Shown here: in pieces, positions 8,029 through 52,333 of the stretch
Numbering within the stretch: position 1 is the first letter of the stretch
How the letters are laid out: each line of letters starts with the position of its first letter
Assembly (NCBI GenBank): GCA_002423615.1
Contig: DIKO01000049.1
Coordinates: forward strand, 40,264 to 104,263
Length of the DNA: 64,000 nucleotides
From: Desulfobacteraceae bacterium UBA5616
GTDB lineage: Bacteria > Desulfobacterota > Desulfobacteria > Desulfobacterales > UBA5616
Direction: 5' to 3'
Translations under genes and position numbers: made by a program
The notes under the pieces: generated by a model
What the model was told of the DNA's origin: nothing
The model's database searches: none
What the model saw: the letters and a program-made list of their open reading frames with translations, nothing else

Positions 8029-8541
8029 TCAGGGCAAACCCGTCTTGTTTATTTTTTCTACCATGTTCAGGCAGGAGGTTTTGAATTCCTCATATTGGCT
8101 TCCCTTCATATCCCCGGTCAGTATCCATTCCAGGGCGTAGTGAACCCCCAGATAATCGTAGGCCATGACCCCATGCCGGTCACGGAGCCATTCAATGCCT
8201 TGTCTGCAAAAGAAACTGAGGCAAATCGGGCTTTTGTGGGTTTTCAGCATGCATCCCGCCAGGGTATGGTATTCACAGGGGCTGATTCTTTTGATACGGG
8301 ACAGTGTTTCAGGAGAGCCGAAAAGCAGTTCCCTGCGGGTTTTCAGCAGTTCAAAAGCAGGGTGATCCAGATCGTATTTTTGATAATAGCGGTCCACACA
8401 GCATCCCGGATTCGGGAATTTCTCGTGATCCGGCTCCAGGATGCAGTGTTTGACGCAATAATCCGTTTCTCTGAACAGTTCGTTCAGGATAGACTCGATT
8501 TCAAGATATTTATGAAGGTTCTCCTCGAAAATGCCCTGCAT
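8029..8541 (-). CDS. Cysteine-rich hypothetical protein (170 aa), last gene of the ACAD operon
   Basis: The ORF lies 31 nt downstream of the ACAD stop. It has about 10 Cys, including CVKHC, GCC, SPCEY, AGC and ICLSFFC. No family was recognised. Confidence 0.5.
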   Translation of the reverse strand: MQGIFEENLHKYLEIESILNELFRETDYCVKHCILEPDHEKFPNPGCCVDRYYQKYDLDHPAFELLKTRRELLFGSPETLSRIKRISPCEYHTLAGCMLKTHKSPICLSFFCRQGIEWLRDRHGVMAYDYLGVHYALEWILTGDMKGSQYEEFKTSCLNMVEKINKTGLP

Positions 8542-8572
8542 CTCAAACCTGAACCACCCGAAATTTCCCTGT

Positions 8573-9706
8573 TTACAAACCCAGGGCTTGCGCCACTTTT
8601 TCCAGGTGATAAGCCGGGTCCCCGAAGAAGACCTCGCCGGCCTTGGCCTTGCGATAATAAAGGTGTAGATTCATCTCTTCGCAAAAACCGATGGCCCCAT
8701 GAATTTGATGGGCCAGGGTGGTTACCTGCCGGGCCGCTGTTCCGGTCCAGGCCTTGCACATGGAGGCATCTTTCCGGAAGGGCAGGTCCCGGGCGATTTT
8801 CCAGGCTGCCTGATAGGTGATGAATCGTGCTCCGTCCACATCCAGAACCATGTTGGCCAGGTGATGCTGGACAGCCTGGAAACTGCCGATGGGCCGGTTG
8901 AACTGATTGCGTTCCTTGGCGTAAGTAACGGACATGTCAAAGGCGGTCTGGAGGCAACCCACCAGTTCGGCACACTTGGCAACGACGGCCCGGGCCTGTA
9001 TCGATTCCAGGATTTCGAATGCGCCGTCAACCGGCCCCAGGACGTCATTTCCGGAAACCCGGACATGGTCCAGAACGACTTCGCATTGATGGTCATGGGC
9101 CAGTGTCTGGATGCGGTTGACCCGGATACCGGGATTCTTGCCGTTTACGATGAACAGGGTGAGGCCGTTTTTATCCCCGGGGTTTCCTCCGGTCCGGGCC
9201 GCGCAGATGATCTTGTCAGCAACATGGGCATTTTCAACGAACAACTTGGTACCGGTGAGAACGTAACCGTCCGTATCGGGAGCCGCTTCCATGGCGATGT
9301 GGACCGGATCAAAATATTGGCCGGGCTCGGTCAGGGCGAACGCCGTCAGCAAATTGCCGTCCGCGATCCCGGGCAAAAGCGCTTTTTTCTGGTTTTCGTT
9401 TCCAGCCAGGAGGATGGGCATGGCGCCCAGTACGATCGTTGAGAAAAACGGGCTTGGGCAGTTTACTTCGCCCATGGCCTCCAGCAGGATGGAAAGCTCG
9501 ATGAAATCGCCGCCGATCCCGTTAAACGACTCGGGAATCATAACCCCTGTCCAGCCCAGTCCGGCCATTTTTTTCCACATCCGGGGGAGGTACCCTTTTT
9601 CGTCGGATTTTAATTCCCTCAAAAGGGAAGGGGGACATTCTTTTTTCAGAAAATCACGGGCCGATTGTTTTAATATTTTTTGCTCTTGGGTGAGATCAAA
9701 ATCCAT
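8573..9706 (-). CDS. Acyl-CoA dehydrogenase family protein, small/beta-type member of a pair
   Basis: ACAD fold (TEPG, GxK.FV.NA). The C-terminus ends ...YHLEKVAQALGL and lacks the GxSEIQRN motif. It is a close paralog of 51197..52333. Confidence 0.9.
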   Translation of the reverse strand: MDFDLTQEQKILKQSARDFLKKECPPSLLRELKSDEKGYLPRMWKKMAGLGWTGVMIPESFNGIGGDFIELSILLEAMGEVNCPSPFFSTIVLGAMPILLAGNENQKKALLPGIADGNLLTAFALTEPGQYFDPVHIAMEAAPDTDGYVLTGTKLFVENAHVADKIICAARTGGNPGDKNGLTLFIVNGKNPGIRVNRIQTLAHDHQCEVVLDHVRVSGNDVLGPVDGAFEILESIQARAVVAKCAELVGCLQTAFDMSVTYAKERNQFNRPIGSFQAVQHHLANMVLDVDGARFITYQAAWKIARDLPFRKDASMCKAWTGTAARQVTTLAHQIHGAIGFCEEMNLHLYYRKAKAGEVFFGDPAYHLEKVAQALGL

Positions 9707-9736
9707 TTCAGATTCCTTTTCTGTGCTTGTAGAAGG

Positions 9737-10939
9737 TTATTTTCTCGGCAATCCCAGACCCCTCTGGGCCACGATATTGCGCTGGATTTCGGAGGAACCC
9801 GCACCGACGGTCGCGGAAATGCAGTCCAGGTATCCCTTGGGGATCATTCCCCGAATGGGCGTCCATGGGGATGGCCCGGTGAGCTGACCGTAGGGGCCCA
9901 TGATCTCCATGGACATGTCGGCCATTTTACGGCTGAGTTCGGTACAGATGAGTTTCAAGGCCGAGGCCTCCACGCTGGGTTGCTGTCCCTTGTCCAGCAT
10001 GTCGGCAGTCCTCCAGAAAAATTTATACGCCACTTCAAGCCGGGTGGCGAGATAAGCGATCTGTTGCCGAACCTGGACGTTTTCACTCAAGGGCCTTCCG
10101 TCCCTTTGAGCGGTTTTAACGTATGCGATGAGTTCCTCGAGCATTTTGGCGAAAGCGCCGATGCCGACCATCAGCCTCTCGAAATCCAGGGCCAGCATGA
10201 GATAGTAAAAGCCCATGTTTTTCTGTCCGATGAGGTTTCGCTTGGGAACGCGGACATTGTCGAAGAAAACCTCGTTAAAGGAATGGGACCCGAGAATGTT
10301 GATCAAGGGACGGATGGTCACCCCGGGGCTCTTGTTGTCCACGATGAACATGCTCATACCCTTGTGGGGTTTTGCATCCGGGTCGGTTTTGGCGGCGAGC
10401 CAGGCGTAATCGGAGAGGTGGGCCGCCGAACTCCAGATTTTCTGGCCATTGATGATATAATCGTCCCCATCCTCGATGGCTGTTGTCCTCATGGCGGCCA
10501 GGTCACTTCCGGCATCGGGTTCGCTGTAGCCCAGCCAGAGGTTGATTTCTCCCCTGGCGATCGGGGGAATCCAGTCCTTCTTGTTTTCTTCGGTGCCGAA
10601 ATGAAGAATGCTGGGCCCGGCAATGCCCGTGGCAATGCCCATTCCCGGAGCCTTGTAATACATGATCAGGTCTTCGTATATGGCCTGCTCCATGTATGAG
10701 TATTGCTTGCCCCCATATTCCTTGGGCCAGGATATGGTGAGCCATCCTTTCTCAGCCAGCTTGTTCTTGAACGCAATCGCAGTCCGGACCATTTCCGGGT
10801 CTTCGTTCAGTTCCATCGAACCATACCCGCCGGGCCAGTATTTCATGCGGTCCGGCCAGTCGGAGGGGAGTTCGGTCTTGAGAAAATTCAGGACCTCGTT
10901 TCTGAAGTCGATCTGTTTTTGCGTAAACTGAAATTCCAT
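9737..10939 (-). CDS. Acyl-CoA dehydrogenase family protein, large/alpha-type member of a pair
   Basis: Contains WPKEYGG, YSEPDAGSDLA, an IVD-like LDFERL segment and a C-terminal GAGSSEIQRNIVAQRGLGLPR. The start is placed at MEFQFTQKQ (ATG 10939), not the track start 11005. It is a paralog of 49972..51159. Confidence 0.9.
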   Translation of the reverse strand: MEFQFTQKQIDFRNEVLNFLKTELPSDWPDRMKYWPGGYGSMELNEDPEMVRTAIAFKNKLAEKGWLTISWPKEYGGKQYSYMEQAIYEDLIMYYKAPGMGIATGIAGPSILHFGTEENKKDWIPPIARGEINLWLGYSEPDAGSDLAAMRTTAIEDGDDYIINGQKIWSSAAHLSDYAWLAAKTDPDAKPHKGMSMFIVDNKSPGVTIRPLINILGSHSFNEVFFDNVRVPKRNLIGQKNMGFYYLMLALDFERLMVGIGAFAKMLEELIAYVKTAQRDGRPLSENVQVRQQIAYLATRLEVAYKFFWRTADMLDKGQQPSVEASALKLICTELSRKMADMSMEIMGPYGQLTGPSPWTPIRGMIPKGYLDCISATVGAGSSEIQRNIVAQRGLGLPRK

Positions 10940-11317: not shown

Positions 11318-12529
11318 TCATCCTCCGCTTAGTGCGCCCGGGTCAAAAAGGTGGGGGTCTAAATCGCTGTTGGTGTTGAGTGCCCCGACAATTGAATAGG
11401 ACCAATATAGCGTTTTGAAATCCGTAGTCCCTCCCCCGAGCCTGAGGGCGTAAAGGTCGGTTTTCGAATTACCGAGGGGCCTGACATGAAAGGCCAATGT
11501 TATGCCTTTCCAGAATTCGCCGCGTTTGTCGTATATTTCCGAGTAAACGCCGGCCCAGTGCCGGTCTCTCACCCACAGGTCCCATTTGGAGGTAGGGTAC
11601 CGTGGATCTTTGGATTTGAGCTCGATGACATAGGCGTCGACGAGTTCATAAGGATCGTTGGGGCCGAAAAGTACGGGATGAGAATACATCTTGTTGGGGA
11701 GCTTATCACCCGTGGTGACCTGGTTCGCCAGCATCAGGGTTTTTTCTTTTCGGAGCAGTTTGTATGTAAAAAGGGGAATTTTTCCATCGAAACAGAATAT
11801 TTCATCCCAGGTCGAAGCGGATCCCCGCATGGGGTTGGCCCTTTCAGCGCTTACCATGCGAATGGTTCTTCTTAAGGTCGGAACATAAGTCCACATGTCA
11901 TCAGTTTTTAAAGGGTCCTTATACCTCCAGGTTAAGGTTGCCATATCTTTGTGGGGAGGTGTCTTGGAATTGATGATGGAAGCCCAGTAGAGACCCTTGG
12001 GATTTGGAAGCTCCGGCAATGGAGGCAGAATGGTCCGTCCTGAGAATTTCAAACAATCAAAGACGCTGTCAAATACGGCAATGGATCCTCCCTTTCGTTT
12101 GGAGAAAGTCAGATAGCTGTAGGGAAGACTCCAGTCTTCGGGCAGATCCTTATAAAACTGATTCCACATGATTTTCAGAGCGAGATCCGGTTCCTGGGGA
12201 TTTGGGAAAGGAACGTCCACCCCGGTGTACCCTTCAATCAAGCCCTCCGGTGTCAGTTTAGCCTTGCCGATATTGCCTTCGGAAGCTTTCCGAAAGGCAT
12301 CGGTGATCGGCCAGTCTTTGGGTTCCCCGATCGAAAGCACGACGGGAGCCTCGAAGCCCCATCCGTCCTTTACGAAGCGCGCCAAAAAGGATGGGAGGTA
12401 ATCCTTGTATTGATCAATATTGGTGGAATCAATAACGTCTCCTCCTCGGGGTTCCGCGGCAAATGAGGGGGGTGAAAAGATCAGCGCTGTAACTGTTGTC
12501 ACCAGCAATAAAAAAAACCGATTTTCCAT
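11318..12529 (-). CDS. Secreted DUF1329 family protein (LolA-like fold), copy 1
   Basis: Signal peptide MENRFFLLLVTTVTALIFSPPSFAAEP. The DDMWTYVPTLRRTIRMVSAERANPMRGS...DEIFCFDG region matches the conserved DUF1329 core pattern (W.Y.P.LRR..R). Confidence 0.75.
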   Translation of the reverse strand: MENRFFLLLVTTVTALIFSPPSFAAEPRGGDVIDSTNIDQYKDYLPSFLARFVKDGWGFEAPVVLSIGEPKDWPITDAFRKASEGNIGKAKLTPEGLIEGYTGVDVPFPNPQEPDLALKIMWNQFYKDLPEDWSLPYSYLTFSKRKGGSIAVFDSVFDCLKFSGRTILPPLPELPNPKGLYWASIINSKTPPHKDMATLTWRYKDPLKTDDMWTYVPTLRRTIRMVSAERANPMRGSASTWDEIFCFDGKIPLFTYKLLRKEKTLMLANQVTTGDKLPNKMYSHPVLFGPNDPYELVDAYVIELKSKDPRYPTSKWDLWVRDRHWAGVYSEIYDKRGEFWKGITLAFHVRPLGNSKTDLYALRLGGGTTDFKTLYWSYSIVGALNTNSDLDPHLFDPGALSGG

Positions 12530-12931: not shown

Positions 12932-15900
12932 ATGATCACAGAAAACCTTCCTGCCTTTTCCATGTCCCAATGGCAGTTTCTGGCCCTTTACCAGGCCGTG
13001 GCCAAACCCTTGTCCATCGACACCGCCGGGCATATCGTTCCTCTGTTGCCCGGGCCTTTTCTCGATCTTTTCAAAAAAGCCGTCGATCTGGGATGGTTGA
13101 TTCCAAGAGCCGAAGGGCTATATCAATTCGCAAAGGCGGCCCCTCCCGGAGTTGTCCGGAAGCTAGATAAAATCAACTCGCCCCATTATCTGACTTCGGT
13201 CGTCAACCGGATTCAGTCCGACCAGGGTATCGCCCGGGAGGCCGGAGACATTGCGGAACTCCTGCTGATCAGGGCCGGCAAAAGTCTGGATGTGGCCCAG
13301 GAAGAATATCAGCGCGCCAAAATCCATATTTCGGAAAACCGGCTGGACGAAGCGTTTTCCGCTTTTCAGAAAACCCTGTCCCTCATTGCCCTGGCCGGGG
13401 ACAGCGCCAAATCGGCCAAACTGTTTGTTTCGGTGGTCATTCATTATTCCTATTTGAGTACGCTGTATGGAAAGGCCACCCGAAAAACCTATGCCCTGAT
13501 GCAGAAAGCCCTTAAACTGTCCGAAAATATCGGTGATATCCGATCCCGGGCCGTGCTGAAAATGCAGTTGGGACTCTATCTGTTTCTGACCCATAATTTA
13601 TCCAACGCCATTTCATCCCTGTCCTCAGGACTGGATATCGTCCGGCAACTCGGGGATGAAGACATCCGGAGCCAGACGACTTCCTATATCGGCTTTTATT
13701 ACTTCATGCGGGGGCGTTACCGGGAGGCCGCCCGTTACTGCCTTCAGGCCTTTCAGGACGGTATCGAAATTAAATACAACCCCTACATCTTAAGTGTCAT
13801 GGGGTATTCCCTGGGATTCCAGGGCCGTTTTTCAACCGCCATCGGCTGCATGGATTATATCCGGACCCTGGCCAGACACCAGGCAGACCCCCAGATGGCG
13901 GCCTATTGCCGGATCGTTATCGGGCTCCTCCTGATTTTCATGGGGGATATGCCCCGGGGTAAGGCCGTGATGGAAGAGGCGATGCTCCATAACCAGAAAA
14001 AATCCCCGAACTTCGCTGAAATCCAGTATGAACTGGGAATGGGGTATGCGGAATACCTCTCCGGGGCTTTCCAATCCGCAGTGGACCACTTTAAAAATGC
14101 CTTCAGCCTTTTTCAGGGCCTCAATATGCAATACCGGAATTTTATTCCCCCATGGATGATTGAAGCCTATTACGAACTTTCCGGAAAGGGATTTTCACTG
14201 CCGGGATTTCAGGAAAATTTTCGGGATGATATGGCATTTTATATCAATGAACCCAATATCGTCCGGAAGGGGATCGCCCTGAGGATGCGCGTTCAGCGGG
14301 ATATGGCCCAGGGGAGTGATTTAAAAAACCTTGAAGCGGATTTACTGGAAAGCGAGCAATACCTGGATCAGGCCGGCGATGTTTTCGAACTGGCCAAAAC
14401 CAGGTTGTGCATGGCCGGATTAAAGCGACGTATGGGAATTCATCAACAGGCAGCCTGGTATGCCGGCCAGGCAGGACCGGAGCTGTCCCGTTACAGACAC
14501 ATGAAGATCAGTGAAGATTTATTGAGACATGTTTCGGGAATAAATCCGATGGCCGATAATAAGGGAAACCCGGAAGACATGTTCCAAAGACTTCTGGACA
14601 TGGTGGAAAATCTGTTGATCATGGATATTCAATTGAATCCCCCGAATTTTTTGTTCCGTTTTATCGTGTCATCCGCACATTTTTTAGGGGCGGAACGGGG
14701 AGCTTATTTCCATTACAGCGAAAAGGAGAAAGGTGAAAACCCGGGGTTTAACCTGATGGGCCAGTTCAACATGGATTCCGGTATTTTTGAAGACCCGGAT
14801 TTTCTTCCCTCACTGACAGCCGTCAAAACCGCATTTGATAACGGTGAACCCAGGGTTTTTATATCAGATGGAAAGGATTCTCACCAGGGTTCATTGATGC
14901 GCTCTTATTTGTGTCTGCCCCTGAAGAACGGCCCCCATGCCAGGGGCGTGTTATATTACGACAACCGGTGGCTGGACGCTCAATACAACAATGTTCCCAT
15001 GAATTCCTTGAAGCGGATCAGCATCCTTTTCGACAATGCGTTTAACCAGGTTTTTCAGATTTATCGGAGAATACGGACCGATACGGACTCCCTCATCGAA
15101 CAAAAAACGCATCTTGGCCCTGGAGAAAACAGCGATTTCATGACCATCAGCCCGGTCATGAAAAAAATGCTGAAACAAATTGACCGGATTGCCGCATCGG
15201 ATGCCCCGGTGCTGATTACCGGCGAGACCGGGGTGGGCAAAGGACTTCTGGCAAAGCGCATTCACGAGAAGAGCAGCAGAAAGGAACGGCCATTCATCGT
15301 GGTGGACCTGAACACCATCCCGGAAAACCTGGTCGAAAGCGAATTGTTCGGGTATGAGAAGGGAGCCTTCACCGGAGCCGACCGGAAAAAAATCGGTCAC
15401 CTGGAAATGGCTCACCGGGGAACCTTGTTTATGGATGAGATCGGTGAAATCCCCCATGCCCTGCAAAGCAAACTCCTGCAGTTTGTTCAGGAAAAATCCT
15501 TCACCCGGATCGGCGGCACCCAGTTGATAAAATCCGATTTCCGGCTGATCACGGCCACCAACCGGGACCTGTCGGAGGATGTCCGGAAAGGGGCCTTCCG
15601 CCTGGATCTTTTTCACCGGTTGAACGTCATTCCCTTTGTTATTCCTTCCCTGGCTGAACGGCGGGAGGACATTCTTTATCTGGCCCGTCATTTTTTGAGG
15701 AATTACGCGACCAAACATCACAAGCCCAATATCCGGCTGTCCGCTCGGCATGAGCAGATGCTTTCATCCTACCACTGGCCCGGGAATGTCCGTGAGCTCG
15801 CCAATATCATGGAACGGTGCATTCTGCTCTCACCGGAAAACCCCATCGATCTGATACTTCCCCTGAACCGGGCCCTTTCAACCGACCACCCGTTTTCCGA

Positions 15901-16075
15901 TACGCCGACCATGGAGGACCTGCAGCGGCGCTACATCGATTTTGTATTGAACCTCACCAATGGTAAAATCGGCGGCAGCAAGGGGGCCGCCGCCATTCTC
16001 GGAATGAAAAGATCCACCCTGTATACGCGGATGGATCGTCTGGGTATCCGGGGCGGCGAGAAGCGGGGTGTTTAG
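12932..16075 (+). CDS. sigma54-dependent transcriptional activator (EBP-1): unknown helical N-domain, GAF, AAA+, Fis-type HTH
   Basis: Walker A GETGVGKG (from 15221), GAFTGA (15361..15378), FRLDLFHRLNV, and C-terminal AAILGMKRSTLYTRMDRLGI. The GAF-like block includes LCLPLKNGPHARGVLYYDN. The first 550 aa or so match no sensor domain I recognise. Confidence 0.9.
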   Translation: MITENLPAFSMSQWQFLALYQAVAKPLSIDTAGHIVPLLPGPFLDLFKKAVDLGWLIPRAEGLYQFAKAAPPGVVRKLDKINSPHYLTSVVNRIQSDQGIAREAGDIAELLLIRAGKSLDVAQEEYQRAKIHISENRLDEAFSAFQKTLSLIALAGDSAKSAKLFVSVVIHYSYLSTLYGKATRKTYALMQKALKLSENIGDIRSRAVLKMQLGLYLFLTHNLSNAISSLSSGLDIVRQLGDEDIRSQTTSYIGFYYFMRGRYREAARYCLQAFQDGIEIKYNPYILSVMGYSLGFQGRFSTAIGCMDYIRTLARHQADPQMAAYCRIVIGLLLIFMGDMPRGKAVMEEAMLHNQKKSPNFAEIQYELGMGYAEYLSGAFQSAVDHFKNAFSLFQGLNMQYRNFIPPWMIEAYYELSGKGFSLPGFQENFRDDMAFYINEPNIVRKGIALRMRVQRDMAQGSDLKNLEADLLESEQYLDQAGDVFELAKTRLCMAGLKRRMGIHQQAAWYAGQAGPELSRYRHMKISEDLLRHVSGINPMADNKGNPEDMFQRLLDMVENLLIMDIQLNPPNFLFRFIVSSAHFLGAERGAYFHYSEKEKGENPGFNLMGQFNMDSGIFEDPDFLPSLTAVKTAFDNGEPRVFISDGKDSHQGSLMRSYLCLPLKNGPHARGVLYYDNRWLDAQYNNVPMNSLKRISILFDNAFNQVFQIYRRIRTDTDSLIEQKTHLGPGENSDFMTISPVMKKMLKQIDRIAASDAPVLITGETGVGKGLLAKRIHEKSSRKERPFIVVDLNTIPENLVESELFGYEKGAFTGADRKKIGHLEMAHRGTLFMDEIGEIPHALQSKLLQFVQEKSFTRIGGTQLIKSDFRLITATNRDLSEDVRKGAFRLDLFHRLNVIPFVIPSLAERREDILYLARHFLRNYATKHHKPNIRLSARHEQMLSSYHWPGNVRELANIMERCILLSPENPIDLILPLNRALSTDHPFSDTPTMEDLQRRYIDFVLNLTNGKIGGSKGAAAILGMKRSTLYTRMDRLGIRGGEKRGV

Positions 16076-16080
16076 TTCTT

Positions 16081-16419
16081 TTATGAGGTGCCCGGAGGGC
16101 TTTCAATGGAATAGACATCAGCGGGCAATTCGATGGTTTTTTCAGGATGGTCAAATTTTTTTCGCTTAAAAAGTTTTTCATGGAAAAAAATCCCAAACCA
16201 TCGGATGTTTCTCCCCAGAAAAGCCAGAAACCGCCCTTTGAAAAGAATATTGGCCAACCCCCGGATATCGTCTTTTCCGACGGTGATCTGGAAATACCAC
16301 ATCACAGGAGTCACGATCTGGCCTTTGATCAGCAGATTGCCATCCCTGATTTCAACGTAATAATGCCTGAAATCCATATTCAGGACCATTGTGCCCAGTC
16401 CTTTGGACCATATGTTCAT
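16081..16419 (-). CDS. Small hypothetical protein (112 aa), tandem paralog B
   Basis: MNIWSKGLGTMVLNMDFRHYYVE... aligns with the upstream 97-aa ORF. Its start overlaps that ORF's stop (ATGA). It is the last gene of the CrtI-like operon. Confidence 0.55.
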   Translation of the reverse strand: MNIWSKGLGTMVLNMDFRHYYVEIRDGNLLIKGQIVTPVMWYFQITVGKDDIRGLANILFKGRFLAFLGRNIRWFGIFFHEKLFKRKKFDHPEKTIELPADVYSIESPPGTS

Positions 16420-16709
16420 TTCGGCTTCTCCGATATCCTCGCATAGCGTTGCCGTTTAAATGCCTTTTCATATAAAAATTGCAGCACAATGGGGAAGTTT
16501 CTCAGAAGGAAAAAAAACGTCGTGGGTTTGAAAAAAATGTTGAGCAGGCCCGGGATGTCTTCCTTGTGAAATGTTGCCTTGAAATCCCACTGAACCGGCT
16601 GGATGGTTATTCCCCGGACCACTGTGCCGTCATTTTCATTTTCAACCCAATAGCGGGAAAAATCGACTTCGAGCTGAATTTTCCCAAGACCTTCGGACCA
16701 CATCTTCAT
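16416..16709 (-). CDS. Small hypothetical protein (97 aa), tandem paralog A
   Basis: MKMWSEGLGKIQLEVDFSRYWVE...KEDIPGLLNIFFK...EKAFKR. A GGAGG lies upstream. The ORF starts 86 nt after the CrtI-like B stop. Confidence 0.55.
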   Translation of the reverse strand: MKMWSEGLGKIQLEVDFSRYWVENENDGTVVRGITIQPVQWDFKATFHKEDIPGLLNIFFKPTTFFFLLRNFPIVLQFLYEKAFKRQRYARISEKPK

Positions 16710-26708: not shown

Positions 26709-26709
26709 T

Positions 26710-28476: not shown

Positions 28477-28500
28477 ACAAATTATAATAAGGAGCTTTGA

Positions 28501-43071: not shown

Positions 43072-43097
43072 TTTTATTCATGCAAGGAATGAGACCT

Positions 43098-43877: not shown

Positions 43878-43888
43878 AAGGATCATGC

Positions 43889-46561: not shown

Positions 46562-46707
46562 TAGTTATAATTACTCTTTTTTAATATGCAGGCCCATGCC
46601 CGGAAACGCAGCGAAATTTGAAGGCGGTTGATTTTTAAATTGCCGTAATACCGACAGTCTTTTTTGCGGACAGCTCATTTAAATTGATAACATGTGAGGA
46701 GGTTAGT

Positions 46708-47838
46708 ATGAGTCAAAAAGAATGTGCAATTGTCGGTCTAGGGTATACCCCCCAGGGAAAATGCCCGGACTGGAGCGTAAGAGAGCTTTTTCTGGAGGCC
46801 AGTGTGAATGCCATCAAGGATGCGGGTATGAAGCCCCATGATATCGACGGTATTCTGGTCGAACTCTGCTGGACCGATCCGACCACCCAAAACTGGTCTT
46901 TACAGATGGACCTGGGAATCCCCGAGCTGAGTCTTTCGGCGGTTTATGATTCCATGGGCGCATCTCCCGGATGCCAGATGCAGGTTGCCCAATGGGCCAT
47001 TCAAAACGGGATCTGCAAAAATGTTTTGTGTGCCTTTGTGGAAAAATCCGCAACAGCACCGGCGGTGCCATACCGCATGAGTGCCGGGCCGGGACTGGCT
47101 TACGGACTTCACGGCGCCATGCACGGTATCGCCCTGGCCGCCATGCGTCATAAAATGCTGTACGGGACCACCAGCGAACAGCTTGGGGAGGTGGCCGTAA
47201 CATTCCGGAAACACGCCCAGTTGAATCCCAAGGCCCAGATGTACGGCAAACCCATGACCCTTGCGGACCATCAGAATTCCCGGATCATTGCCGAACCCCT
47301 GCATCTTTTCGACTGCTGTCTGGTATCCGATGGTGGACGGGCCGCGGTTATTACATCGGGGGACCGGGCAAAGGATTGTCCTCAGCCGCCGGTTTATATC
47401 ATGGGATACGGTCAGGGTCATGTGAAGATGGATCTTATTGAAAGAAACACCCTGGTGGACACCGGAGCCGGAGTCTCCGGGGCACATGCTTTCAGGACCG
47501 CCGGTATCCAGCACAAAGACATCGATGTCCTGGGACTGTACGATGCCACCACCCATAACATCATCACCCAGCTCGAGGAACTGGGATTCTGCGAAAGGGG
47601 TGAAGGCGGGCCCTTTGTCGAAAACGGCCGTTTGTCCATTGATGGTGAATTCCCCACCAATCTTTCAGGTGGCATGCTCTCCGAAACCTACCTCCAGGGA
47701 TGGACCGGAATTCCGGAAATCGTCAGCCAGCTTAGAGGCCACTGCGGGGACCGCCAGGTCAAGGATGCCAAAATCGGGCTGGTCACCAACCAGGGCGGAT
47801 ATATCGCATTTCATTCAACTCTAATTTTGCGGAGGTAA
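46708..47838 (+). CDS. Thiolase-like protein (SCP-x / BbsB / Ltp-type)
   Basis: MSQKECAIVGLGYTPQGK..., with a C-terminal thiolase fold ending ...NLSGGMLSETYLQGW...GLVTNQGG. The start is at ATG 46708, after GAGGAGG. Confidence 0.8.
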   Translation: MSQKECAIVGLGYTPQGKCPDWSVRELFLEASVNAIKDAGMKPHDIDGILVELCWTDPTTQNWSLQMDLGIPELSLSAVYDSMGASPGCQMQVAQWAIQNGICKNVLCAFVEKSATAPAVPYRMSAGPGLAYGLHGAMHGIALAAMRHKMLYGTTSEQLGEVAVTFRKHAQLNPKAQMYGKPMTLADHQNSRIIAEPLHLFDCCLVSDGGRAAVITSGDRAKDCPQPPVYIMGYGQGHVKMDLIERNTLVDTGAGVSGAHAFRTAGIQHKDIDVLGLYDATTHNIITQLEELGFCERGEGGPFVENGRLSIDGEFPTNLSGGMLSETYLQGWTGIPEIVSQLRGHCGDRQVKDAKIGLVTNQGGYIAFHSTLILRR

Positions 47839-47844
47839 TCTGAT

Positions 47845-48270
47845 ATGACAACCCAGTTTAAAAAACCATCTCCCGGAATTACGCCGGAAACCAAGCCTTT
47901 CTGGGATGCTGCTAAAAGAAATGAATTCATGCTGGTCAAATGCGTGGGTTGCGGTTTTTACCGGAACCCGGTTTCCATCACCGCCAACATCTGCCCGGAA
48001 TGCGGGTCCAGAAAGCCGGGGGAATGGGTGAAGGCCAGCGGCAAGGGCAGGGTCCACACTTACACGGCGGTTCACCGGACTTTTGATCCTTCCTTTGAAA
48101 AAGAACTTCCCTATATCATCGTCATCGTCGAGCTTGAAGAAGGCCCGCGCTTTCTTTCCAACATGAGAGACGCAAAGCCGGAAGACATGAAACTGGACAT
48201 GCCCCTTGAAGTGGTCTTTGAAAAAGTCAGCGACGAGGTGACCGTTCCGTATTTCAAACCCGCAAAATAA
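47845..48270 (+). CDS. DUF35 OB-fold / rubredoxin-like zinc-ribbon protein (thiolase partner, BbsA-like)
   Basis: CVGCGFYRNPVSITANICPECGS is a zinc ribbon, followed by the OB-fold segment GKGRVHTYTAVHR. The protein is 141 aa and directly follows the thiolase-like gene. Confidence 0.8.
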   Translation: MTTQFKKPSPGITPETKPFWDAAKRNEFMLVKCVGCGFYRNPVSITANICPECGSRKPGEWVKASGKGRVHTYTAVHRTFDPSFEKELPYIIVIVELEEGPRFLSNMRDAKPEDMKLDMPLEVVFEKVSDEVTVPYFKPAK

Positions 48271-48283: not shown

Positions 48284-49072
48284 ATGAATTATGAAGCCAT
48301 TCTCGTCGAAAAAAAAGGCCATATCACAATAGTGACAATAAACCGGCCCGAAGTGATGAATGCGGTAAGCCCCATCACCGGTCTGGAGCTTGAAACCGCT
48401 TTCAATGAATTCAACGAAGATCCCGAGGCATGGGTCTGTATCGTTACCGGCGCCGGTGACCGGGCTTTCTGCGTGGGAAACGATCTGAAGTTTCATGCGG
48501 AAAACTTCGCCCGGATGCCGGAGCTCTCGGCCAGATTAAAATACGGATTCGGCGGGATTACCGAAAGATACGACTGCTTTAAACCCATGATCGCGGCGGT
48601 TAACGGCATGGCCCTGGGCGGTGGTTTCGAGATCGCGCTGGCCTGTGATATCATCATTGCTTCCGAGAAAGCTGTTTTCGGCCTTCCCGAACCCCGGGTG
48701 GGACTCATGGCCCTGGCCGGCGGCGTGCATCGCCTTTCCCGTCAGATTCCCTATCACGTGGCCATGGGCATGATACTGGCATCCAGGCGCATTACCGCCC
48801 AGGAGGCTCTTAACTACGGGGTCGCCAACGAAGTCGCCGCCCCGGAGAAACTCATGGAAGTCGCCTTGAAATGGGCTGAGGAAATTCTTCTGAGCGCCCC
48901 CCTTTCCGTAAGGGCATCCAAGGAGTCGGTGATCAGGGGCAGCGATTTGCCTCTGGACAAGGCCATTTCCGCCCAATTTCCCGGTGTGATTAAAATGATG
49001 AATTCCCAGGATATGATCGAAGGTCCGACTGCCTTTGCACAGAAACGCAAACCCAACTGGAAGGGAAAATGA
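48284..49072 (+). CDS. Enoyl-CoA hydratase/isomerase (crotonase) family protein
   Basis: ITIVTINRPEVMNA, GAGDRAFCVGNDLK and AAVNGMALGGGFEIALACDIIIAS. Confidence 0.9.
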   Translation: MNYEAILVEKKGHITIVTINRPEVMNAVSPITGLELETAFNEFNEDPEAWVCIVTGAGDRAFCVGNDLKFHAENFARMPELSARLKYGFGGITERYDCFKPMIAAVNGMALGGGFEIALACDIIIASEKAVFGLPEPRVGLMALAGGVHRLSRQIPYHVAMGMILASRRITAQEALNYGVANEVAAPEKLMEVALKWAEEILLSAPLSVRASKESVIRGSDLPLDKAISAQFPGVIKMMNSQDMIEGPTAFAQKRKPNWKGK

Positions 49073-49099
49073 TCGATAGGATTATAAAAGGACTGTGCG

Positions 49100-49909
49100 A
49101 TGAAAACCTTATGTGAGGATCTAAGAAACGAACAGCAGGCCCTGGATGATATCATCGCTGAGATTGCAGACGCGGACTGGGAAAAAGATACCCCTGCCAA
49201 GGGATGGGCGATAAGGGATCAAATCGCCCATCTTGCCTTTTTCGATGAAAAAGCCAAAAAGACCATTATCGATCCGGAAGGATTTAAAGCCGAGCTTGAA
49301 GAAATGATGCGGAACCCACAAAAATTTCTTGATGTTATGAATAAACCGGCAATGTCAAGAACCGTTCCGGAATTAAAAGCCTGGTGGCGGAAAGAACGAT
49401 GGGACCTTGTGGAAGCCCTGTTACCGCTGGATCCCAGGGAACGGGTCGCCTGGTATGGCCCCCCCATGAGTGCCAGATCCCATGCCACGGCAAGAATGAT
49501 GGAAACCTGGGCTCATGGGCAGGATGTGGCCGATGCTCTGGGGGTAAAACGCCCGGCCACCGACCGTCTGAAGCATATCGCCCACCTGGGATATACCACC
49601 TTCAAATGGAGCTTCGTCAACCACCGGATGGCGGTTTCGGATGAGCAGGTGAGACTGGAACTGGTGAGCCCCTCCGGAGAGTTATGGACATGGGGGCCTG
49701 ATTCCAGTGAAAACCTGATCAAGGGGCCTTGTGAGGATTTTTGTCTTGTGGTGATTCAGAGACGGAACGTGGCTGATACGCGGCTATCTGTAACAGGGAA
49801 AACGGCGGGGAAATGGATGTCCATTGCCCAATGTTTCGCAGGTCCTGGAACCATGGGTCCTGATCCGGGAAAATTTCCCTTGGGGTCATTCTCTGATGGA
49901 TCCTGCTGA
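49100..49909 (+). CDS. DinB/MDMPI-like metal-binding protein (TIGR03084-like)
   Basis: The N-terminal four-helix region LRNEQQALDDIIAEIADADWEKDTPAKGWAIRDQIAHLAFFDE and ETWAHGQDV resemble the maleylpyruvate-isomerase N-terminal/DinB superfamily. The assignment rests on recall of family patterns only. Confidence 0.55.
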   Translation: MKTLCEDLRNEQQALDDIIAEIADADWEKDTPAKGWAIRDQIAHLAFFDEKAKKTIIDPEGFKAELEEMMRNPQKFLDVMNKPAMSRTVPELKAWWRKERWDLVEALLPLDPRERVAWYGPPMSARSHATARMMETWAHGQDVADALGVKRPATDRLKHIAHLGYTTFKWSFVNHRMAVSDEQVRLELVSPSGELWTWGPDSSENLIKGPCEDFCLVVIQRRNVADTRLSVTGKTAGKWMSIAQCFAGPGTMGPDPGKFPLGSFSDGSC

Positions 49910-49971
49910 AATATCATTTTAATTTGTACACTGTAGATGGACGTTTGAATTTTCAGGTTGGAGGGAAGAAC

Positions 49972-51159
49972 ATGAATTTCAGCTTTACAACGGAACAGGA
50001 AGCATTTCGCACGGAAGTCAGGGAATTTATGGAAAAGGAAGTGCCCAGCAGGTGGAGGGAACTGGGTTACGGCATCTGGGAAGAGGATGACGAATCCTGG
50101 GAGCTCACTTCCCAATGGGTTAAAAAGCTGGGGCAGAAAGGCTGGCTTTCCTTGACCTGGCCGAAGGAATTTGGAGGACAGGAACGATCCCATATTTACC
50201 AGTTGATTCTGGATGAGGAAACGGCCAGGGTCGGGACCCCTTCGGGAATTGAGAGCATGATCACCATCGGCTGGGTCTGCCCGACCATCATGGTGTTCGG
50301 AAGCCCCGAACAGAAAGAAACAATCCTCCCGAAGGCCTCCAAAGGGGAACTGATTTTCTGCCTGGGGTACAGCGAACCCGGAGCCGGCTCCGACCTGGCA
50401 TCGGTAACGACAACGGCTGTGGAAGAGGGCGATGAATTCATCCTGAACGGACAGAAGGTCTGGACCACCATCGCCCACCGGGCGGATTACTGCTGGCTGG
50501 TGGCGAGAACCGACCTGGATGCGCCCAAGCACAAGGGCCTTTCCATGTTTATCGTGGACATGAAAACCCCCGGAATCAAAATCAATCCGCTGACCAATAT
50601 TCTGGGGTTTCATTCCTTTAACGAAGTGTTTTTCGATAACGTCAGAATCCCCAGGAAAAACCTGGTAGGGCAGAAAAATCTGGGATGGTATCAACTGGCC
50701 ATGGCTCTGGACCACGAAAGGTCGGGAGTCGGCTCTCCAGCCGCCATGGACAGGATGCTCCATGAACTGATCCGGTATTGCAAGACGACCCGAAGGGACG
50801 GGAAATTCCTCGCCGATGACCCATCGGTGAGAAAACGGATCGCACGCCTTGCCGTAGAGAAGGATGTTTTAAGAATGATCTGTTACCGGGTGACTTCCGT
50901 TCAGGAAAAAGGCGGGGTCCCCAATTATGAGGCCTCCACCGCCAAGGTTTTTACAACGGAATTGATGGACCGGTTCGCCAATACGGTCCTCGATATACTG
51001 GGTCCTTACGGCCAGTTGGATCGAAATTCCAGACTCGCGCCTTTTAACGGGCTGTTCGTCAGGCAATTTCTCCATTCCCCATCCAGCGTCGGCGGCGGAA
51101 CCTCCGAAATTCAAAGAAATATTATCGCCATGAGGGGATTGGGCCTTCCCCGAGGGTAA
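49972..51159 (+). CDS. Acyl-CoA dehydrogenase family protein, alpha-type (paralog of 9737..10939)
   Basis: WPKEFGG, YSEPGAGSDLA, LDHER and GGGTSEIQRNIIAMRGLGLPRG. The start is at ATG 49972, after GGAGGG. Confidence 0.9.
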   Translation: MNFSFTTEQEAFRTEVREFMEKEVPSRWRELGYGIWEEDDESWELTSQWVKKLGQKGWLSLTWPKEFGGQERSHIYQLILDEETARVGTPSGIESMITIGWVCPTIMVFGSPEQKETILPKASKGELIFCLGYSEPGAGSDLASVTTTAVEEGDEFILNGQKVWTTIAHRADYCWLVARTDLDAPKHKGLSMFIVDMKTPGIKINPLTNILGFHSFNEVFFDNVRIPRKNLVGQKNLGWYQLAMALDHERSGVGSPAAMDRMLHELIRYCKTTRRDGKFLADDPSVRKRIARLAVEKDVLRMICYRVTSVQEKGGVPNYEASTAKVFTTELMDRFANTVLDILGPYGQLDRNSRLAPFNGLFVRQFLHSPSSVGGGTSEIQRNIIAMRGLGLPRG

Positions 51160-51196
51160 AAAGGACCCTGCCTACTCACGCCAAAGGAGATGTAAA

Positions 51197-52333
51197 ATGG
51201 ATCTGGATTTGACCAGGGATCAGAAAATCCTTTTCAATTCGGCAAAAGAATTTTTGAAAAAAGAATGTTCAACTTCCCTGTTGCGGGAAATGAAGGACGA
51301 CGCAAACGGTTATCCGCCGAAAATGTGGAAAAAAATGGCGGAACTGGGATGGCCGGGGGTTATGATCCCGGAGGAATTCGGTGGAATGGCGGGAAATTTC
51401 ATCGATCTTGTCCTTCTTCTCGAGGCCATGGGGGAGGTCAATTGCCCCGGGCCCTTCTTCTCGACAGTTGTTCTCGGAGCGCTTCCGGTGATGAACGCCG
51501 GAACTCCGGAACAGAAAAAGGAAATACTTCCCAAAATCGCCGATGGCGCCATGATCATGGCCTATGCCATGAATGAGGCCGGAATTCATTACGACGCTTC
51601 ATTTGTCGCCATGCCCGCCAAGGCCGATGGGGACGCCTATATTTTAAACGGAACCAAGCTGTTTGTTGAAAACGCCCACATTGCCGACCTTATCCTTTGC
51701 GTTGCCAGAACCGAAGGGGTTCCCGGATCGAAAGACGGGTTGACGCTTTTCATGGTGGATGGGAAAAGCAAGGGCGTCCGCACGTCGATGCTGACGACCC
51801 TGGCCTTCGACAAGCAATGCGAAGTGGTGTTTGACGATGCCCGGGTTGATAAAGACAGAATCCTCGGCCGGCCGGGAAAGGCTTTTGAGATAATCGAAAC
51901 ACTAACGGAACAGGCGGCCCTGGCCAAGTGTGCCGAAATGGTGGGGAGCGCCCAGAGAGCCTTTGACCAGACCGTTGCCTATGCCAAGGAAAGAAAACAG
52001 TTTGACAAACCCATCGGGAGTTTCCAGGCGATCCAGCACCATATGGCCAATATGATCATGGATATGGACGGCGCACGGTTCATGACCTATCGGGCCGCAT
52101 GGGAAATGACCCGGGACCTGCCGTCGGCGTCCATGTCGGCATCCATGGCCAAAGCCTGGACCGGAAACGCCACGCACAAAATAGCTCTTTTGGCTCACCA
52201 GATTCACGGCGCCATTGCTTTTTGCGAAGAACTGGATCTGCACCTGCATTATCGCAGGACAAAGGCCGGGTCGCTTTCCTTTGGCGACGAGGATTACCAT
52301 TTAGAGAAAGTGGCAAGGCATCTGGGGCTTTAA
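51197..52333 (+). CDS. Acyl-CoA dehydrogenase family protein, beta-type (paralog of 8573..9706)
   Basis: The N-terminus MDLDLTRDQKILFNSAKEFLKKEC is collinear with MDFDLTQEQKILKQSARDFLKKEC. The C-terminus ends ...YHLEKVARHLGL. Confidence 0.9.
   Translation: MDLDLTRDQKILFNSAKEFLKKECSTSLLREMKDDANGYPPKMWKKMAELGWPGVMIPEEFGGMAGNFIDLVLLLEAMGEVNCPGPFFSTVVLGALPVMNAGTPEQKKEILPKIADGAMIMAYAMNEAGIHYDASFVAMPAKADGDAYILNGTKLFVENAHIADLILCVARTEGVPGSKDGLTLFMVDGKSKGVRTSMLTTLAFDKQCEVVFDDARVDKDRILGRPGKAFEIIETLTEQAALAKCAEMVGSAQRAFDQTVAYAKERKQFDKPIGSFQAIQHHMANMIMDMDGARFMTYRAAWEMTRDLPSASMSASMAKAWTGNATHKIALLAHQIHGAIAFCEELDLHLHYRRTKAGSLSFGDEDYHLEKVARHLGL

Follow-up and report, generated by a model that had tools for sequence, protein, structure and literature searches.

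Between 8.0 and 52.3 kb of a 64,000-nucleotide stretch of contig DIKO01000049.1 of Desulfobacteraceae bacterium UBA5616 (the window, referring to the whole stretch analyzed) lies an island of 31 catabolic or regulatory genes that we read as an enzyme set for the anaerobic breakdown of branched or alicyclic acids. In the model that we favor, because it uses most of the genes and rests on tested residues and recurrent gene linkage, side chains would be cut at tertiary carbons to give ketones, which would then be re-activated by a thiamine diphosphate (ThDP) enzyme together with an ATP-driven iron-sulfur (FeS) enzyme; we put its probability at roughly 0.4. Judging from the encoded enzymes, the likely substrates are hydrophobic carboxylic acids with a tertiary beta-carbon, whether alicyclic ("naphthenic"), terpenoid, or isoprenoid, with cycloalkyl-acetic-type naphthenic acids and 3-methyl-branched isoprenoid acids as candidates. 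An anaerobic catabolic cluster dependent on coenzyme A (CoA) is a known kind of system and its parts belong to known superfamilies; the combination of these parts is not described in the literature searched.

The window is part of a 122,764-bp contig from JGI metagenome 3300002220 (record MLSBCLC_10003321), in which the prefix MLSBCLC, going by the name only, apparently denotes the Mildred Lake Settling Basin oil-sands tailings pond. Genes were called from an open reading frame (ORF) listing combined with Pfam and NCBIfam scans of the window, and closest structures were obtained by comparison with the PDB. Two start codons, those of the 400-aa acyl-CoA dehydrogenase at 9737..10939 and of the 1079-aa second activator, follow the source gene calls. 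A first-pass annotation had described the block as a sigma54-wired catabolic island for the CoA-thioester chemistry of a hydrophobic substrate. Both the theme and the wiring are supported, every gene class that it listed was recovered at the coordinates given there in the ORF listing, Pfam, and NCBIfam, and its statement that the block maps onto no characterized operon set agrees with our comparison, in which none of the thn, ctm/mrc, and bbs clusters proved collinear with it; its readings of a thiolase, of a CoA-transferase, and of the block as a single unit are corrected below. Among the block proteins, only a DinB-fold protein reaches an NCBIfam equivalog cut-off. Loci of relatives are given as L numbers where they have to be told apart.

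The operon at 46.5–52.3 kb encodes the following proteins.
46684..48270, plus strand: thiolase-fold Ltp2-like retro-aldolase and its DUF35 partner (zinc ribbon and OB domains)
48284..49909, plus strand: crotonase (DpgD/EchA19-like) and DinB-fold TIGR03084 metal-binding protein (333 bits, cut-off 248)
49924..52333, plus strand: acyl-CoA dehydrogenase (ACAD) pair 2, a large PimC-like (49924-51159) and a small PimD-like (51197-52333) subunit

The thiolase-fold protein and DUF35 had been read as a BbsAB-like pair for beta-oxidation. The best structural match of the former, however, is Ltp2 (6OK1, E 5e-64) and not BbsB (PDB 7PXP, 2e-23). It carries GASPG, without a nucleophilic Cys, where true SCP2 thiolases in other loci have C-A-S/T-G. 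Its Tyr286, in a Y-D-A-T motif, aligns with Y294DHF of Ltp2, where true SCP2 thiolases have HDCF, and its Tyr336 aligns with Tyr344. GASPG, YDAT, and Tyr336 are all kept in orthologs, and the oxyanion His of the Ltp2 YDHF motif is Ala in the window protein. The lost Cys, both Tyr residues, and the adjacent DUF35 gene are the features of Ltp2/Sal-type proteins, and retro-aldol chemistry rather than thiolysis is predicted. BbsAB, the benzoylsuccinyl-CoA thiolase, was also rejected as a counterpart on the score of the BbsB model (92 of 750 bits), on the missing Cys, and on the lack of a BbsCD-type dehydrogenase. The island encodes no 3-hydroxyacyl-CoA dehydrogenase; the Pfam map has no SDR or HADH gene anywhere between 8 and 52 kb.

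By its gene content, the operon appears to be the functional equivalent of the igr-type set for steroid side-chain cleavage (ChsE1-E2, hydratase, Ltp2-ChsH2; 6OK1). A heteromeric-type ACAD pair, a hydratase, a thiolase-fold aldolase, and DUF35 likewise stand in one operon, and cleavage of this type leaves the ketone on a ring-type tertiary carbon. In contrast to the igr-type set, the hydratase is a crotonase instead of a MaoC pair, the DUF35 protein is free-standing (141 aa), the host belongs to a strictly anaerobic lineage, and no other steroid genes are present here. A second ACAD pair is found on the minus strand in the left arm of the island.
8573..9706, minus strand: ACAD small subunit type, PimD-like, pair 1 (Pfam ACAD N, M, and C domains; pimD_small 201 bits, cut-off 653)
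9737..10939, minus strand: ACAD large subunit type, PimC-like, pair 1, 400 aa (best NCBIfam model pimC_large, 213 bits, below cut-off)
The small subunits of the two pairs are 62% identical and the large subunits 48%, and identity within a pair is 24–29%. The best NCBIfam models for these proteins are the pimeloyl-CoA dehydrogenase large and small subunits, well below cut-off. In an alignment restricted to the four window ACADs, both large subunits have Gly or Ala (Ala in pair 1) at the expected position of the C-terminal catalytic Glu before SEIQR, and the small subunits have a Glu in a different C-terminal context, a residue pattern consistent with heteromers having one catalytic subunit.

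A second lyase and the proposed ketone-activating enzymes are encoded in the operon at 34.3–46.0 kb.
34349..34570, plus strand: 73-aa basic ORF, the first gene behind a perfect sigma54 promoter, with counterparts of 75 aa (L007) and 77 aa (L090)
34653..35900, plus strand: HMG-CoA-lyase-like lyase, 415 aa (HMGL-like, 6e-26), with insertions and a C-terminal extension of ~80 aa
35916..37880, plus strand: long-form ThDP enzyme of the OXC/HACL/ALS superfamily, 654 aa, with three ThDP domains
38048..39619, plus strand: AMP-forming acyl-CoA ligase, FadD type (PRK06187 long-chain-fatty-acid--CoA ligase, 433 bits, cut-off 476)
39798..41096, plus strand: catalytic-type subunit of a BCR/HAD-family radical enzyme, in the BzdO/HadB position (HGD-D, 4e-61)
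41098..42267, plus strand: electron-storage subunit, BzdN-like (BzdN 1e-56, HadC 4e-42)
42271..43877, plus strand: two BcrA/D-type ATPases, 266 and 265 aa, 37% identical, with paired Cys in KCA(S/A)GTG and SxC(A/G)VFA
43844..45985, plus strand: AbfT-like family I (Cat1) CoA-transferase fused to a Pat-like GNAT domain

The closest structure to the HMG-CoA-lyase-like (HMGL-like) protein is the HMG-CoA lyase of B. subtilis (1YDO, E 5e-29), with the RDGLQ and HFH motifs aligned; the NCBIfam HMG-CoA lyase model gives 132 bits against a cut-off of 246. Since the island encodes an Ltp2-like aldolase and an HMGL-like lyase and neither a dehydrogenase nor a true thiolase, we infer carbon-carbon cleavage at tertiary alcohols, giving ketones. 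The ThDP enzyme is closest in structure to oxalyl-CoA decarboxylase (OXC) and 2-hydroxyacyl-CoA lyase/synthase (HACL), with E 1e-46 to 1e-37, and shares their full-length three-domain architecture (PDB 8VZJ, 6XN8, 7PT1). It differs from them in being ~60–100 residues longer and in forming part of a small, separate long-form clade, and it stays below their cut-offs (HACL NF058623, 176 vs 600; OXC, 183 vs 557 and 168 vs 739). Its relatives at E<=1e-30 make up 321 representative clusters among 1.84 billion, and in the ten closest clusters looked up the named members are all proteins of metagenome-assembled genomes (MAGs). The ligase has FadD13 as its closest structure, with only malonyl-CoA synthetase/benzoate-CoA ligase chimeras and no pure benzoate-CoA ligase chain at E<=1e-40.

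The four genes behind the ligase encode a radical enzyme that, judged by its residues and gene set, has the architecture of a class I benzoyl-CoA reductase (BCR) with a catalytic subunit of uncertain specificity. The earlier label of a class I BCR-like enzyme suits its six Cys and two ATPases and not its equivalog scores; its catalytic subunit is closest to HadB. In the BzdN-like subunit, C32, C69, C96, C273, C302, and C339 align with all six [8Fe-9S] ligands of BzdN (Cys36/73/100/263/293/327); HadC is without the first and fourth of these double-cubane Cys, and the six are kept in 22–28 of 28 family members. The catalytic-type subunit matches HadB (6e-36), MbdO (1e-30), and BzdO (2e-24) in the PDB. 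Its three cluster Cys align with BzdO 95/128/380 (HadB has them too), and Leu occupies the position of BzdO Trp46. With the six double-cubane and three active-site Cys in place and cluster Cys in both ATPases, the enzyme looks intact. The BCR equivalog cut-offs are missed throughout (bzdN 199 vs 454, bzdO 109 vs 449, bzdQ 238 vs 380, and BcrA-D all lower), as are those for HadB (165 vs 750) and HadC (177 vs 700). Nor does it have the make-up of a HadBC/HgdAB-type dehydratase set, given the six-Cys site and two distinct ATPase genes as opposed to one activator.

The last gene of the operon had been described as a CoA-transferase–GNAT fusion, and the domains are as described. Residues 17-445 form the CoA-transferase domain, which matches 4-hydroxybutyrate CoA-transferase (3EH7, E 5e-118). 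The catalytic Glu is missing, however: the protein reads HTQM where AbfT has HTEM (Glu238 of 3GK7), with the QxGhG loop kept, and orthologs L007 and L066 have the same Gln. The GNAT part resembles Pat-type protein acetyltransferases, which regulate AMP-forming acyl-CoA ligases by lysine acetylation. A precedent for activity without the Glu is ThnP of the N47 thn cluster, a Cat1 enzyme that carries out intramolecular CoA transfer on a ring-cleavage dicarboxylate.

The gene linkage that supports the model is conserved to different depths. The right half of the island (activator 3, the 73-aa ORF, the HMGL-like and ThDP enzymes, ligase, four BCR-type genes, CoA-transferase/GNAT, thiolase-fold protein, DUF35, crotonase, and ACADs) recurs in the same order, at 72-92% protein identity, in the BLK5-2.bin.101 MAG and, on two contigs, in a Desulfobacteraceae MAG, so that the ThDP and BCR-like genes are contiguous here and in those two MAGs. 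Beyond these, long-form ThDP genes of 650-660 aa lie within a few kb of BCR-like genes at six loci of a clade whose BCR-like proteins are 40-50% identical to those of the window; these ThDP proteins are 27-31% identical to the window protein over a full-length alignment (E 1e-66 to 1e-80). The long-form ThDP enzyme thus recurs beside the BCR-like family in two clades. At L034 the order is sigma54 two-component pair, BcrO, BcrN, two ATPases, crotonase, SDR, and ThDP; at L055 it is ThDP, HADH, thiolase, BcrO, BcrN, DUF362, thiolase, ACAD, APH, and ETF. A BCR-like family member at 74% identity has as neighbors a Zn-alcohol dehydrogenase (Zn-ADH), two SDRs, an AbfD/HpaB-like protein, and a ligase. 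The annotated BCR-like neighborhoods (L034, L055, L095) contain carbonyl/alcohol enzymes and not benzoyl-CoA genes, the other loci having been probed only with window proteins. A pairing of HACL with BCR was not found in the literature searched.

By the BzdN-like protein, the closest genomes are an uncultured Desulfobacteraceae MAG (86%) and Desulfobacterales bacterium BLK5-2.bin.101 (82%), followed at 70-75% by MAGs labeled "delta proteobacterium" and Thermodesulfobacteriota. In the genome scan every relative above 40% identity is MAG-derived, and the sole isolate genome in that scan, Sporomusa silvacetica, matched at 33%; the scan and two cluster look-ups returned no isolate among the close relatives of the BzdN-like and ThDP proteins, only MAG or environmental sequences.

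Upstream of this operon lies a module that could supply its low-potential electrons.
23971..29334, plus strand: four-gene 2-oxoacid:ferredoxin module (GltD-like flavo-FeS protein with Fer4 ferredoxin domains, PadH/HcaD-like FAD reductase, KorA, KorB)
Strain NaphS2 has the same four genes at the same sizes and 65% identity, adjoining glutamate dehydrogenase, aconitase, and fumarase. A PadEFGHI-like phenylglyoxylate oxidoreductase was rejected as the primary reading because the four-gene set sits among these tricarboxylic acid (TCA) cycle genes in NaphS2; the PadH-like match amounts to 107 of the 475 bits required. The order Kor-DUF1329-activator-HMGL is kept in L090/L091.

The nearest experimentally studied counterpart of the HMGL-ThDP-ligase-BCR block, which the first-pass annotation had not considered, is in our analysis the ketone-induced protein set of Desulfococcus biacutus and Desulfosarcina cetonica. 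When D. cetonica grows on acetone, butanone, isopropanol, or pentanones, its induced proteins include a ThDP "acetolactate synthase" and an HMG-CoA lyase as well as an acyl-CoA synthetase and BCR/HGD subunits, together with an acyl-CoA hydrolase, a thiolase, an SDR, and a B12 mutase, and the acetone-induced cluster of D. biacutus contains two BCR subunit genes (PMC7888143, PMC4103992). These organisms are of the same bacterial family as the host of the window, and four of their enzyme families stand contiguously here in one sigma54 operon, in the order HMGL-ThDP-ligase-BcrO-BcrN-ATPases-AbfT-like. Several differences are evident: the window has no MeaB, SDR, carboxyltransferase/decarboxylase, or true thiolase; a LuxR two-component system is used there and giant sigma54 activators here; and their BCR/HGD genes lie outside the main cluster.

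We propose the following sequence of reactions. Secreted LolA-like DUF1329 proteins would handle the hydrophobic substrate in the periplasm, and the FadD-type ligase, an assignment made from its family, would form the CoA ester. The PimCD-like heteromeric ACADs and the crotonase would convert this to a 3-hydroxyacyl-CoA, which could not be oxidized further because its carbinol carbon is tertiary; no 3-hydroxyacyl-CoA dehydrogenase is encoded. The Ltp2-type aldolase/DUF35, with its two catalytic Tyr, or the HMGL-like enzyme, with its aligned RDGLQ and HFH motifs, would then carry out a retro-aldol cleavage to acetyl- or propionyl-CoA and a ketone. Aerobic cleavage of this type, from (1-hydroxycyclohexyl)acetyl-CoA to cyclohexanone, occurs in Arthrobacter. 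The long-form ThDP enzyme may extend the ketone by a C1 unit to a 2-hydroxy-2-alkylacyl-CoA, following the proposal made for acetone in D. biacutus, and the double-cubane BCR/HAD enzyme may remove the 2-hydroxyl with ATP, either by dehydration or by reductive dehydroxylation, with the adjacent 2-oxoacid:ferredoxin module priming the FeS enzyme or feeding it electrons. The Glu-less AbfT-like/GNAT fusion could shift CoA intramolecularly like ThnP, or could acetylate and regulate the ligase. Finally, a flavoprotein pair resembling CtmAB and Delta24-SD might modify an allylic or isoprenoid position in the same class of substrates. Tertiary beta-carbons are a known block to the beta-oxidation of naphthenic acids, and a review names no genes for the anaerobic degradation of such acids in tailings-pond communities (PMC10710301).

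A number of observations speak against this model. A six-Cys double cubane with a heterodimeric ATPase is the hallmark of a stoichiometric reductase, not of a dehydratase. The ThDP enzyme falls below every NCBIfam cut-off, its best model is a generic "acetolactate synthase," and no ThDP gene lies nearby in the 56-75% tiers of the BCR-like family. The proposed ThDP-dependent formylation of the ketone to 2-hydroxyisobutyryl-CoA has never been reconstituted and its C1 donor is unknown (2014 and 2021 papers). The parallel to D. biacutus and D. cetonica is one of enzyme families only, and their pathway uses a B12 mutase (2-hydroxyisobutyryl-CoA mutase) that is absent here (PMC4103992, PMC7888143). 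Alcohol and aldehyde dehydrogenases, a true thiolase, ETF, and a small ferredoxin are missing from the block, which is thus not self-sufficient. Its left arm (activator 1, DUF1329a, and ACAD pair 1) is absent from a syntenic relative, which has integrases and transposases there instead. Lastly, oxidations of the CtmAB type depend on an acceptor of positive potential, and it has been argued that they cannot operate in sulfate-reducing or methanogenic systems (PMC12583861).

A ring reduction like that of the thn pathway is the main alternative, possible but doubtful. The ligase would activate an aromatic, partly saturated bicyclic, or alkyl-substituted ring carboxylate, and the BCR-type enzyme would reduce the aryl-CoA in an ATP-dependent Birch-type reaction with electrons from KorAB, which is the BCR electron donor in Thauera and Azoarcus; ring cleavage would give a dicarboxylyl-CoA, on which the Glu-less Cat1 enzyme would move CoA as ThnP does, leaving the PimCD-like ACADs, crotonase, and lyases to finish. 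The electron-storage subunit fits such a role, being closest to BzdN, with six [8Fe-9S] Cys, and so do the two different ATPases and the adjacent Kor module, the linkage of which is conserved. Compared with BzdNOPQ (PDB 8S02; PMC11971306), the O-N-ATPase-ATPase gene order, the six plus three Cys, and the adjacent 2-oxoacid:ferredoxin oxidoreductase are shared, but the equivalog scores reach only 25-60% of cut-off, the catalytic-type subunit is nearer HadB than BzdO with Trp46 replaced, and no downstream benzoyl-CoA pathway genes are in the window. The thn cluster of the naphthalene-degrading culture N47 (ThnB-E, ThnP, ThnO/T; PMC11659651) also has an ATP-dependent four-subunit reductase of class I type, a Glu-less Cat1, a crotonase, ACADs whose site of action adjoins a tertiary carbon, and a step in which a lyase acts on a tertiary alcohol, and the pimeloyl-CoA dehydrogenase subunits that are the best ACAD models suit this chemistry as well.

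The inventories nevertheless diverge. An inventory comparison of Table S1 of PMC11659651 with the Pfam map found no collinearity with thnA-V and about half of the families unshared either way. Found in the thn cluster and not in the island are MaoC dehydratases, a beta-hydroxyacyl-CoA dehydrogenase, AtuA-like lyases, a metallo-hydrolase, true thiolases, and a ferredoxin, and thn has three or four crotonases against one. The island in turn encodes a ligase, a ThDP enzyme, an HMGL-like lyase, a DUF35 protein, and a GNAT domain, all of which thn lacks. A BamA/Oah-type ring hydrolase is likewise missing, the ligase is FadD13-like and not of the benzoate-CoA-ligase type, and relatives of the radical enzyme adjoin ThDP, ADH, and SDR genes, with no aromatic-pathway neighbors seen at loci probed mainly with window proteins. 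Ring reduction also leaves the ThDP enzyme without a role, which the ketone-activation model provides.

The remaining modules bear on whether the island is one system. The flavoprotein operon comprises three entries.
16081..16709, minus strand: a tandem of small paralogous ORFs, 112 and 97 aa, lying downstream of both flavoprotein genes
16796..18469, minus strand: CtmAB/Delta24-SD-like flavoprotein subunit, 557 aa (CrtI-family matches far below cut-off), with His81 in ...FANTHAT...
18548..20239, minus strand: second flavoprotein subunit, 563 aa, with His58 in ...KIDPHAT...

The CrtI-like pair noted earlier is present, and its comparison with CtmAB holds for architecture alone. Two adjacent COG1233 genes of ~550-565 aa are distantly related in each case (24% over 555 aligned positions here, 27% between CtmA and CtmB of limonene dehydrogenase, and 26% between the subunits of the sterol Delta24-desaturase, Delta24-SD, of Sterolibacterium denitrificans), each subunit has a His-Ala spaced from its Rossmann motif as expected, and two small hypothetical genes directly follow the pair, as ctmC/ctmD do in ctmABCDEFG of Castellaniella defragrans. 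The covalent-flavin consensus deviates, however: SYFANTHA and GCKIDPHA differ from G-F-L/R-x-N/S-T/L-H-A at positions 1-3 and, in one subunit, at positions 5-6 too. There is also no 2Fe-2S ferredoxin gene here, and the host is a low-potential anaerobe. CrtI, CrtO, and CrtD models score far below cut-off, and solved CrtI structures are matched weakly. The 1611 homologs of the 557-aa subunit come from uncultured anaerobes and bear generic names only; homologs of the pair are abundant in uncultured Thermodesulfobacteriota and Dehalococcoidia, and the best BLAST match of CtmA/B in 2014 was a protein of the sulfate reducer NaphS2. As a match for the whole block, ctm was rejected in that only the four-gene flavoprotein unit corresponds, by architecture, and the methanogenic limonene lss/lrc operons were rejected for their different chemistry, a glycyl radical enzyme and a BadI-type hydrolase. 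The 112- and 97-aa ORFs, which have a conserved N-terminal half and a hydrophobic C-terminal half, stand behind the pair in L002, L003, and L093. At L094 a flavoprotein pair of 52% identity is followed by a Zn-alcohol dehydrogenase.

A further small protein and two secreted proteins were examined.
8029..8541, minus strand: Cys-rich 170-aa protein, the last gene of the left ACAD unit
11318..12529, minus strand: DUF1329/LolA-like protein a (DUF1329 1e-34 and LolA_like), signal peptide ...SFA|AEP
29353..30585, minus strand: DUF1329/LolA-like protein b (DUF1329 2e-48), signal peptide ...AIA|ADP
Because an ortholog of the Cys-rich protein (63% identical) directly follows the small ORFs of the flavoprotein operon in L002/L003, this ORF probably belongs with the flavoprotein module, and it may be an electron-transfer partner of the flavoproteins; its AF2 single-sequence model was unusable (pLDDT 43). 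No Pfam family matches it or the three small ORFs. The two DUF1329 proteins, recognized earlier as secreted and LolA-like, are confirmed by Pfam and by their Sec signal peptides, and are 40% identical. DUF1329 proteins have been tied to the handling of hydrophobic substrates in Delftia and ORM2 (PMC13101534). The "Magic" and "Nanopod" benzene clusters of ORM2 were rejected as counterparts, with DUF1329 alone in common and the other gene families different. Each DUF1329 gene is divergent from a giant activator gene, forming a duplicated cassette (11318-16075 and 29353-34099) with DNA-level repeats ~18,035 bp apart.

Regulation is assigned to three activators and four promoters.
12932..16075, plus strand: giant sigma54 activator 1, 1047 aa (TPR, AAA+, and HTH; Sigma54_activat 9e-65), 34% identical to each of activators 2 and 3
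20650..23889, plus strand: giant sigma54 activator 2, 1079 aa
30992..34099, plus strand: giant sigma54 activator 3 (TPR, GAF, and AAA+), kept upstream of the HMGL operon in L007 and L090
11002..11016, minus strand: sigma54 promoter of the left ACAD unit, CGGCACGGCCTTTGC, 63 nt upstream of the called start codon
20365..20379, minus strand: sigma54 promoter of the flavoprotein operon, TGGCATGAAAAATGC, with orthologous site TGGCACCTTTATTGCC before the first flavoprotein gene in L002
34237..34251, plus strand: sigma54 promoter of the HMGL operon, TGGCACACAGATTGC, a perfect TGGCAC-N5-TTGC, kept in L022 and L090/L091
46546..46560, plus strand: sigma54 promoter of the aldolase-ACAD operon, TGGCATATCCATTGC, with an orthologous site in L066

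The activators (1035-1098 aa; TPR, GAF, sigma54 AAA+, and HTH; Sigma54_activat E 9e-65 to 1e-67) are full-length paralogs at 34-37% identity, and the four -24/-12 sites lie in correct orientation, each heading a catabolic unit, 60-150 nt before its first gene; the activator, DUF1329, and Kor genes have no such site in front of them. Across the window the sigma54 motif was found 41 times against 58 expected, which is not above chance, and the promoter evidence therefore consists of position and of conservation at the orthologous sites in L022, L090/L091, L002, and L066. Identity, position, and conservation together bear out the three activators and four promoters reported earlier. Enhancer-binding proteins with an AAA+ domain and promoters of the GG-N10-GC form point to a sigma54-dependent regulon; rpoN is not within the window. 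A search for shared upstream activating sequences returned short motifs only, too weak to support a claim. A half-site, GGATTT/AAATCC, lies upstream of three of the four promoters (10700-11020, 34000-34240, and 46230-46550), and a 12-nt sequence, AAATCCTCAAAA, is common to the two ACAD-containing units in opposite orientation; either could be a binding site for the activators, though sequences of this length may also recur by chance.

An ENA long-read contig keeps the succession of flavoprotein unit, activator, Kor, DUF1329, activator, and HMGL at 72-90% identity, despite insertions of a histidine kinase, a transposase, and a transporter. The earlier view of the 45 kb as one system accordingly stands for the order of the core and not for the whole, which, by comparison of loci, is modular, with a conserved core at ~16-52 kb and a variable left arm. 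Some orthologs are broken into short ORFs: those of activator 3, HMGL, and ThDP at 14422-21300 of L091 and that of activator 2 at 4805-7835 of L003. These are probably assembly frameshifts and not decay, because the sister contig L090 is intact.

This modularity raises the question of a mosaic, in which the 45 kb would have accumulated as separately regulated units for different substrates (the flavoprotein unit, a housekeeping-type 2-oxoglutarate:ferredoxin oxidoreductase, an ACAD unit, and the HMGL-to-ACAD block) and would form no single pathway. We consider this rather unlikely. In its favor, three different activators suggest three signals, the TCA-gene setting of the Kor set in NaphS2 is that of a housekeeping enzyme, the left arm is missing in L002/L090, the outer flank in L002/L003 contains integrases and transposases, and in the 70-75% tier the BCR genes travel with a ligase and nothing else of the block. 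At L093, moreover, a 72% relative of the flavoprotein unit stands alone with its own, different PAS-type sigma54 activator. At L004, however, a single operon combines a flavoprotein pair of 59% identity with DUF35, a crotonase, and a thiolase-fold gene of the aldolase-like type. The activators are paralogs of each other, and the duplication of the DUF1329-activator cassette and of the ACAD pairs within the island argues for local expansion around one theme; the retained order of the core also speaks against a mosaic.

Finally, an anaerobic alpha-oxidation, in which the BCR/HAD enzyme, as a reversed 2-hydroxyacyl-CoA dehydratase, would hydrate a 3-methyl-2-enoyl-CoA at C2 and the ThDP enzyme, as a 2-hydroxyacyl-CoA lyase, would release formyl-CoA and a one-carbon-shorter aldehyde or ketone, thus bypassing the beta-methyl branch without O2, is improbable: the ThDP enzyme's closest structures (HACL/OXC), the HadB-like catalytic subunit, ACAD pairs that could supply the enoyl-CoA, and the reversibility of HACL reactions (PMC8760513) would suit it, but the island has no aldehyde dehydrogenase to recover the product, and the retained double cubane and the Kor module argue for net electron input. 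It differs from the ketone-activation model in reaction direction only, and the two are inseparable by sequence.

The GC content is even (0.48-0.57), with no compositional break at the edges of the 8.0-52.3 kb block, and an Rfam scan of the window gave 0 matches at the gathering threshold. The left flank is unrelated (CvpA, MazG, an aldolase, and Kdo transferase). At 7756-7997 on the plus strand there are peptide fragments, "HRNILSHTYD" and, in the next fragment, a "...GGVLF" C-terminus, recognized by eye, which we take to be HepT/MNT-like; the 7.7-8.0 kb region is plausibly a decayed toxin-antitoxin remnant, the fragments resembling a motif of HepT toxins and the beginning of a nucleotidyltransferase of the MNT type. 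The right flank (APH kinase, alkyl sulfatase, LarA-like protein, LutABC, and IorAB) is also unrelated, and the membership of its first gene in the island is uncertain.
52354..53406, minus strand: APH-family kinase (APH 1e-49), convergent to the island
52354-56814, minus strand: this kinase, an SdsA1-type alkyl sulfatase (MBL with an SCP2-like C-terminus), and a LarA-like protein, all on one strand
56920-58081, minus strand: a 264-aa ORF with the N-terminal IlvD/EDD dehydratase domain only, followed by a second ORF (56920-57336); the gene may be split or frameshifted
Beyond these lie LutABC and an IorAB-type indolepyruvate oxidoreductase. In L032 and L055, APH genes adjoin ACADs in the vicinity of BCR-like genes, and L008 carries a fusion of APH with SCP2; this neighborhood recalls the kinase and ACAD route for 4-hydroxyacyl-CoA (Lva/ACAD10-11).

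For the interpretation of related MAGs, annotations such as "benzoyl-CoA reductase" or "thiolase" are not to be taken as evidence of aromatic degradation or of beta-oxidation. The gene linkage described here points to a BCR/HGD-type enzyme as a possible partner in ketone activation by Desulfococcus and Desulfosarcina. In its strongest form, which we consider unlikely at present, the idea is that the 34.3–46.0 kb operon would contain, as a single unit, the ATP-dependent machinery with which sulfate reducers activate carbonyl compounds, with the ThDP and FeS radical enzymes acting jointly on bulky cyclic or isoprenoid ketones released by the retro-aldolases. If true, this would be a new reaction type for the BCR/HAD family, and the lack of such a partner could explain why the ThDP step of D. 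biacutus was never reconstituted. In the absence of oxygen, naphthenic acids, isoprenoid acids, and many terpenoids are persistent because of their tertiary and quaternary carbons. With its steroid-type retro-aldolases, an HMG-CoA-lyase relative, a ThDP enzyme of a small uncharacterized clade, and an ATP-driven double-cubane enzyme, the island offers a concrete candidate enzyme set for the anaerobic breakdown of beta-blocked naphthenic and isoprenoid acids.

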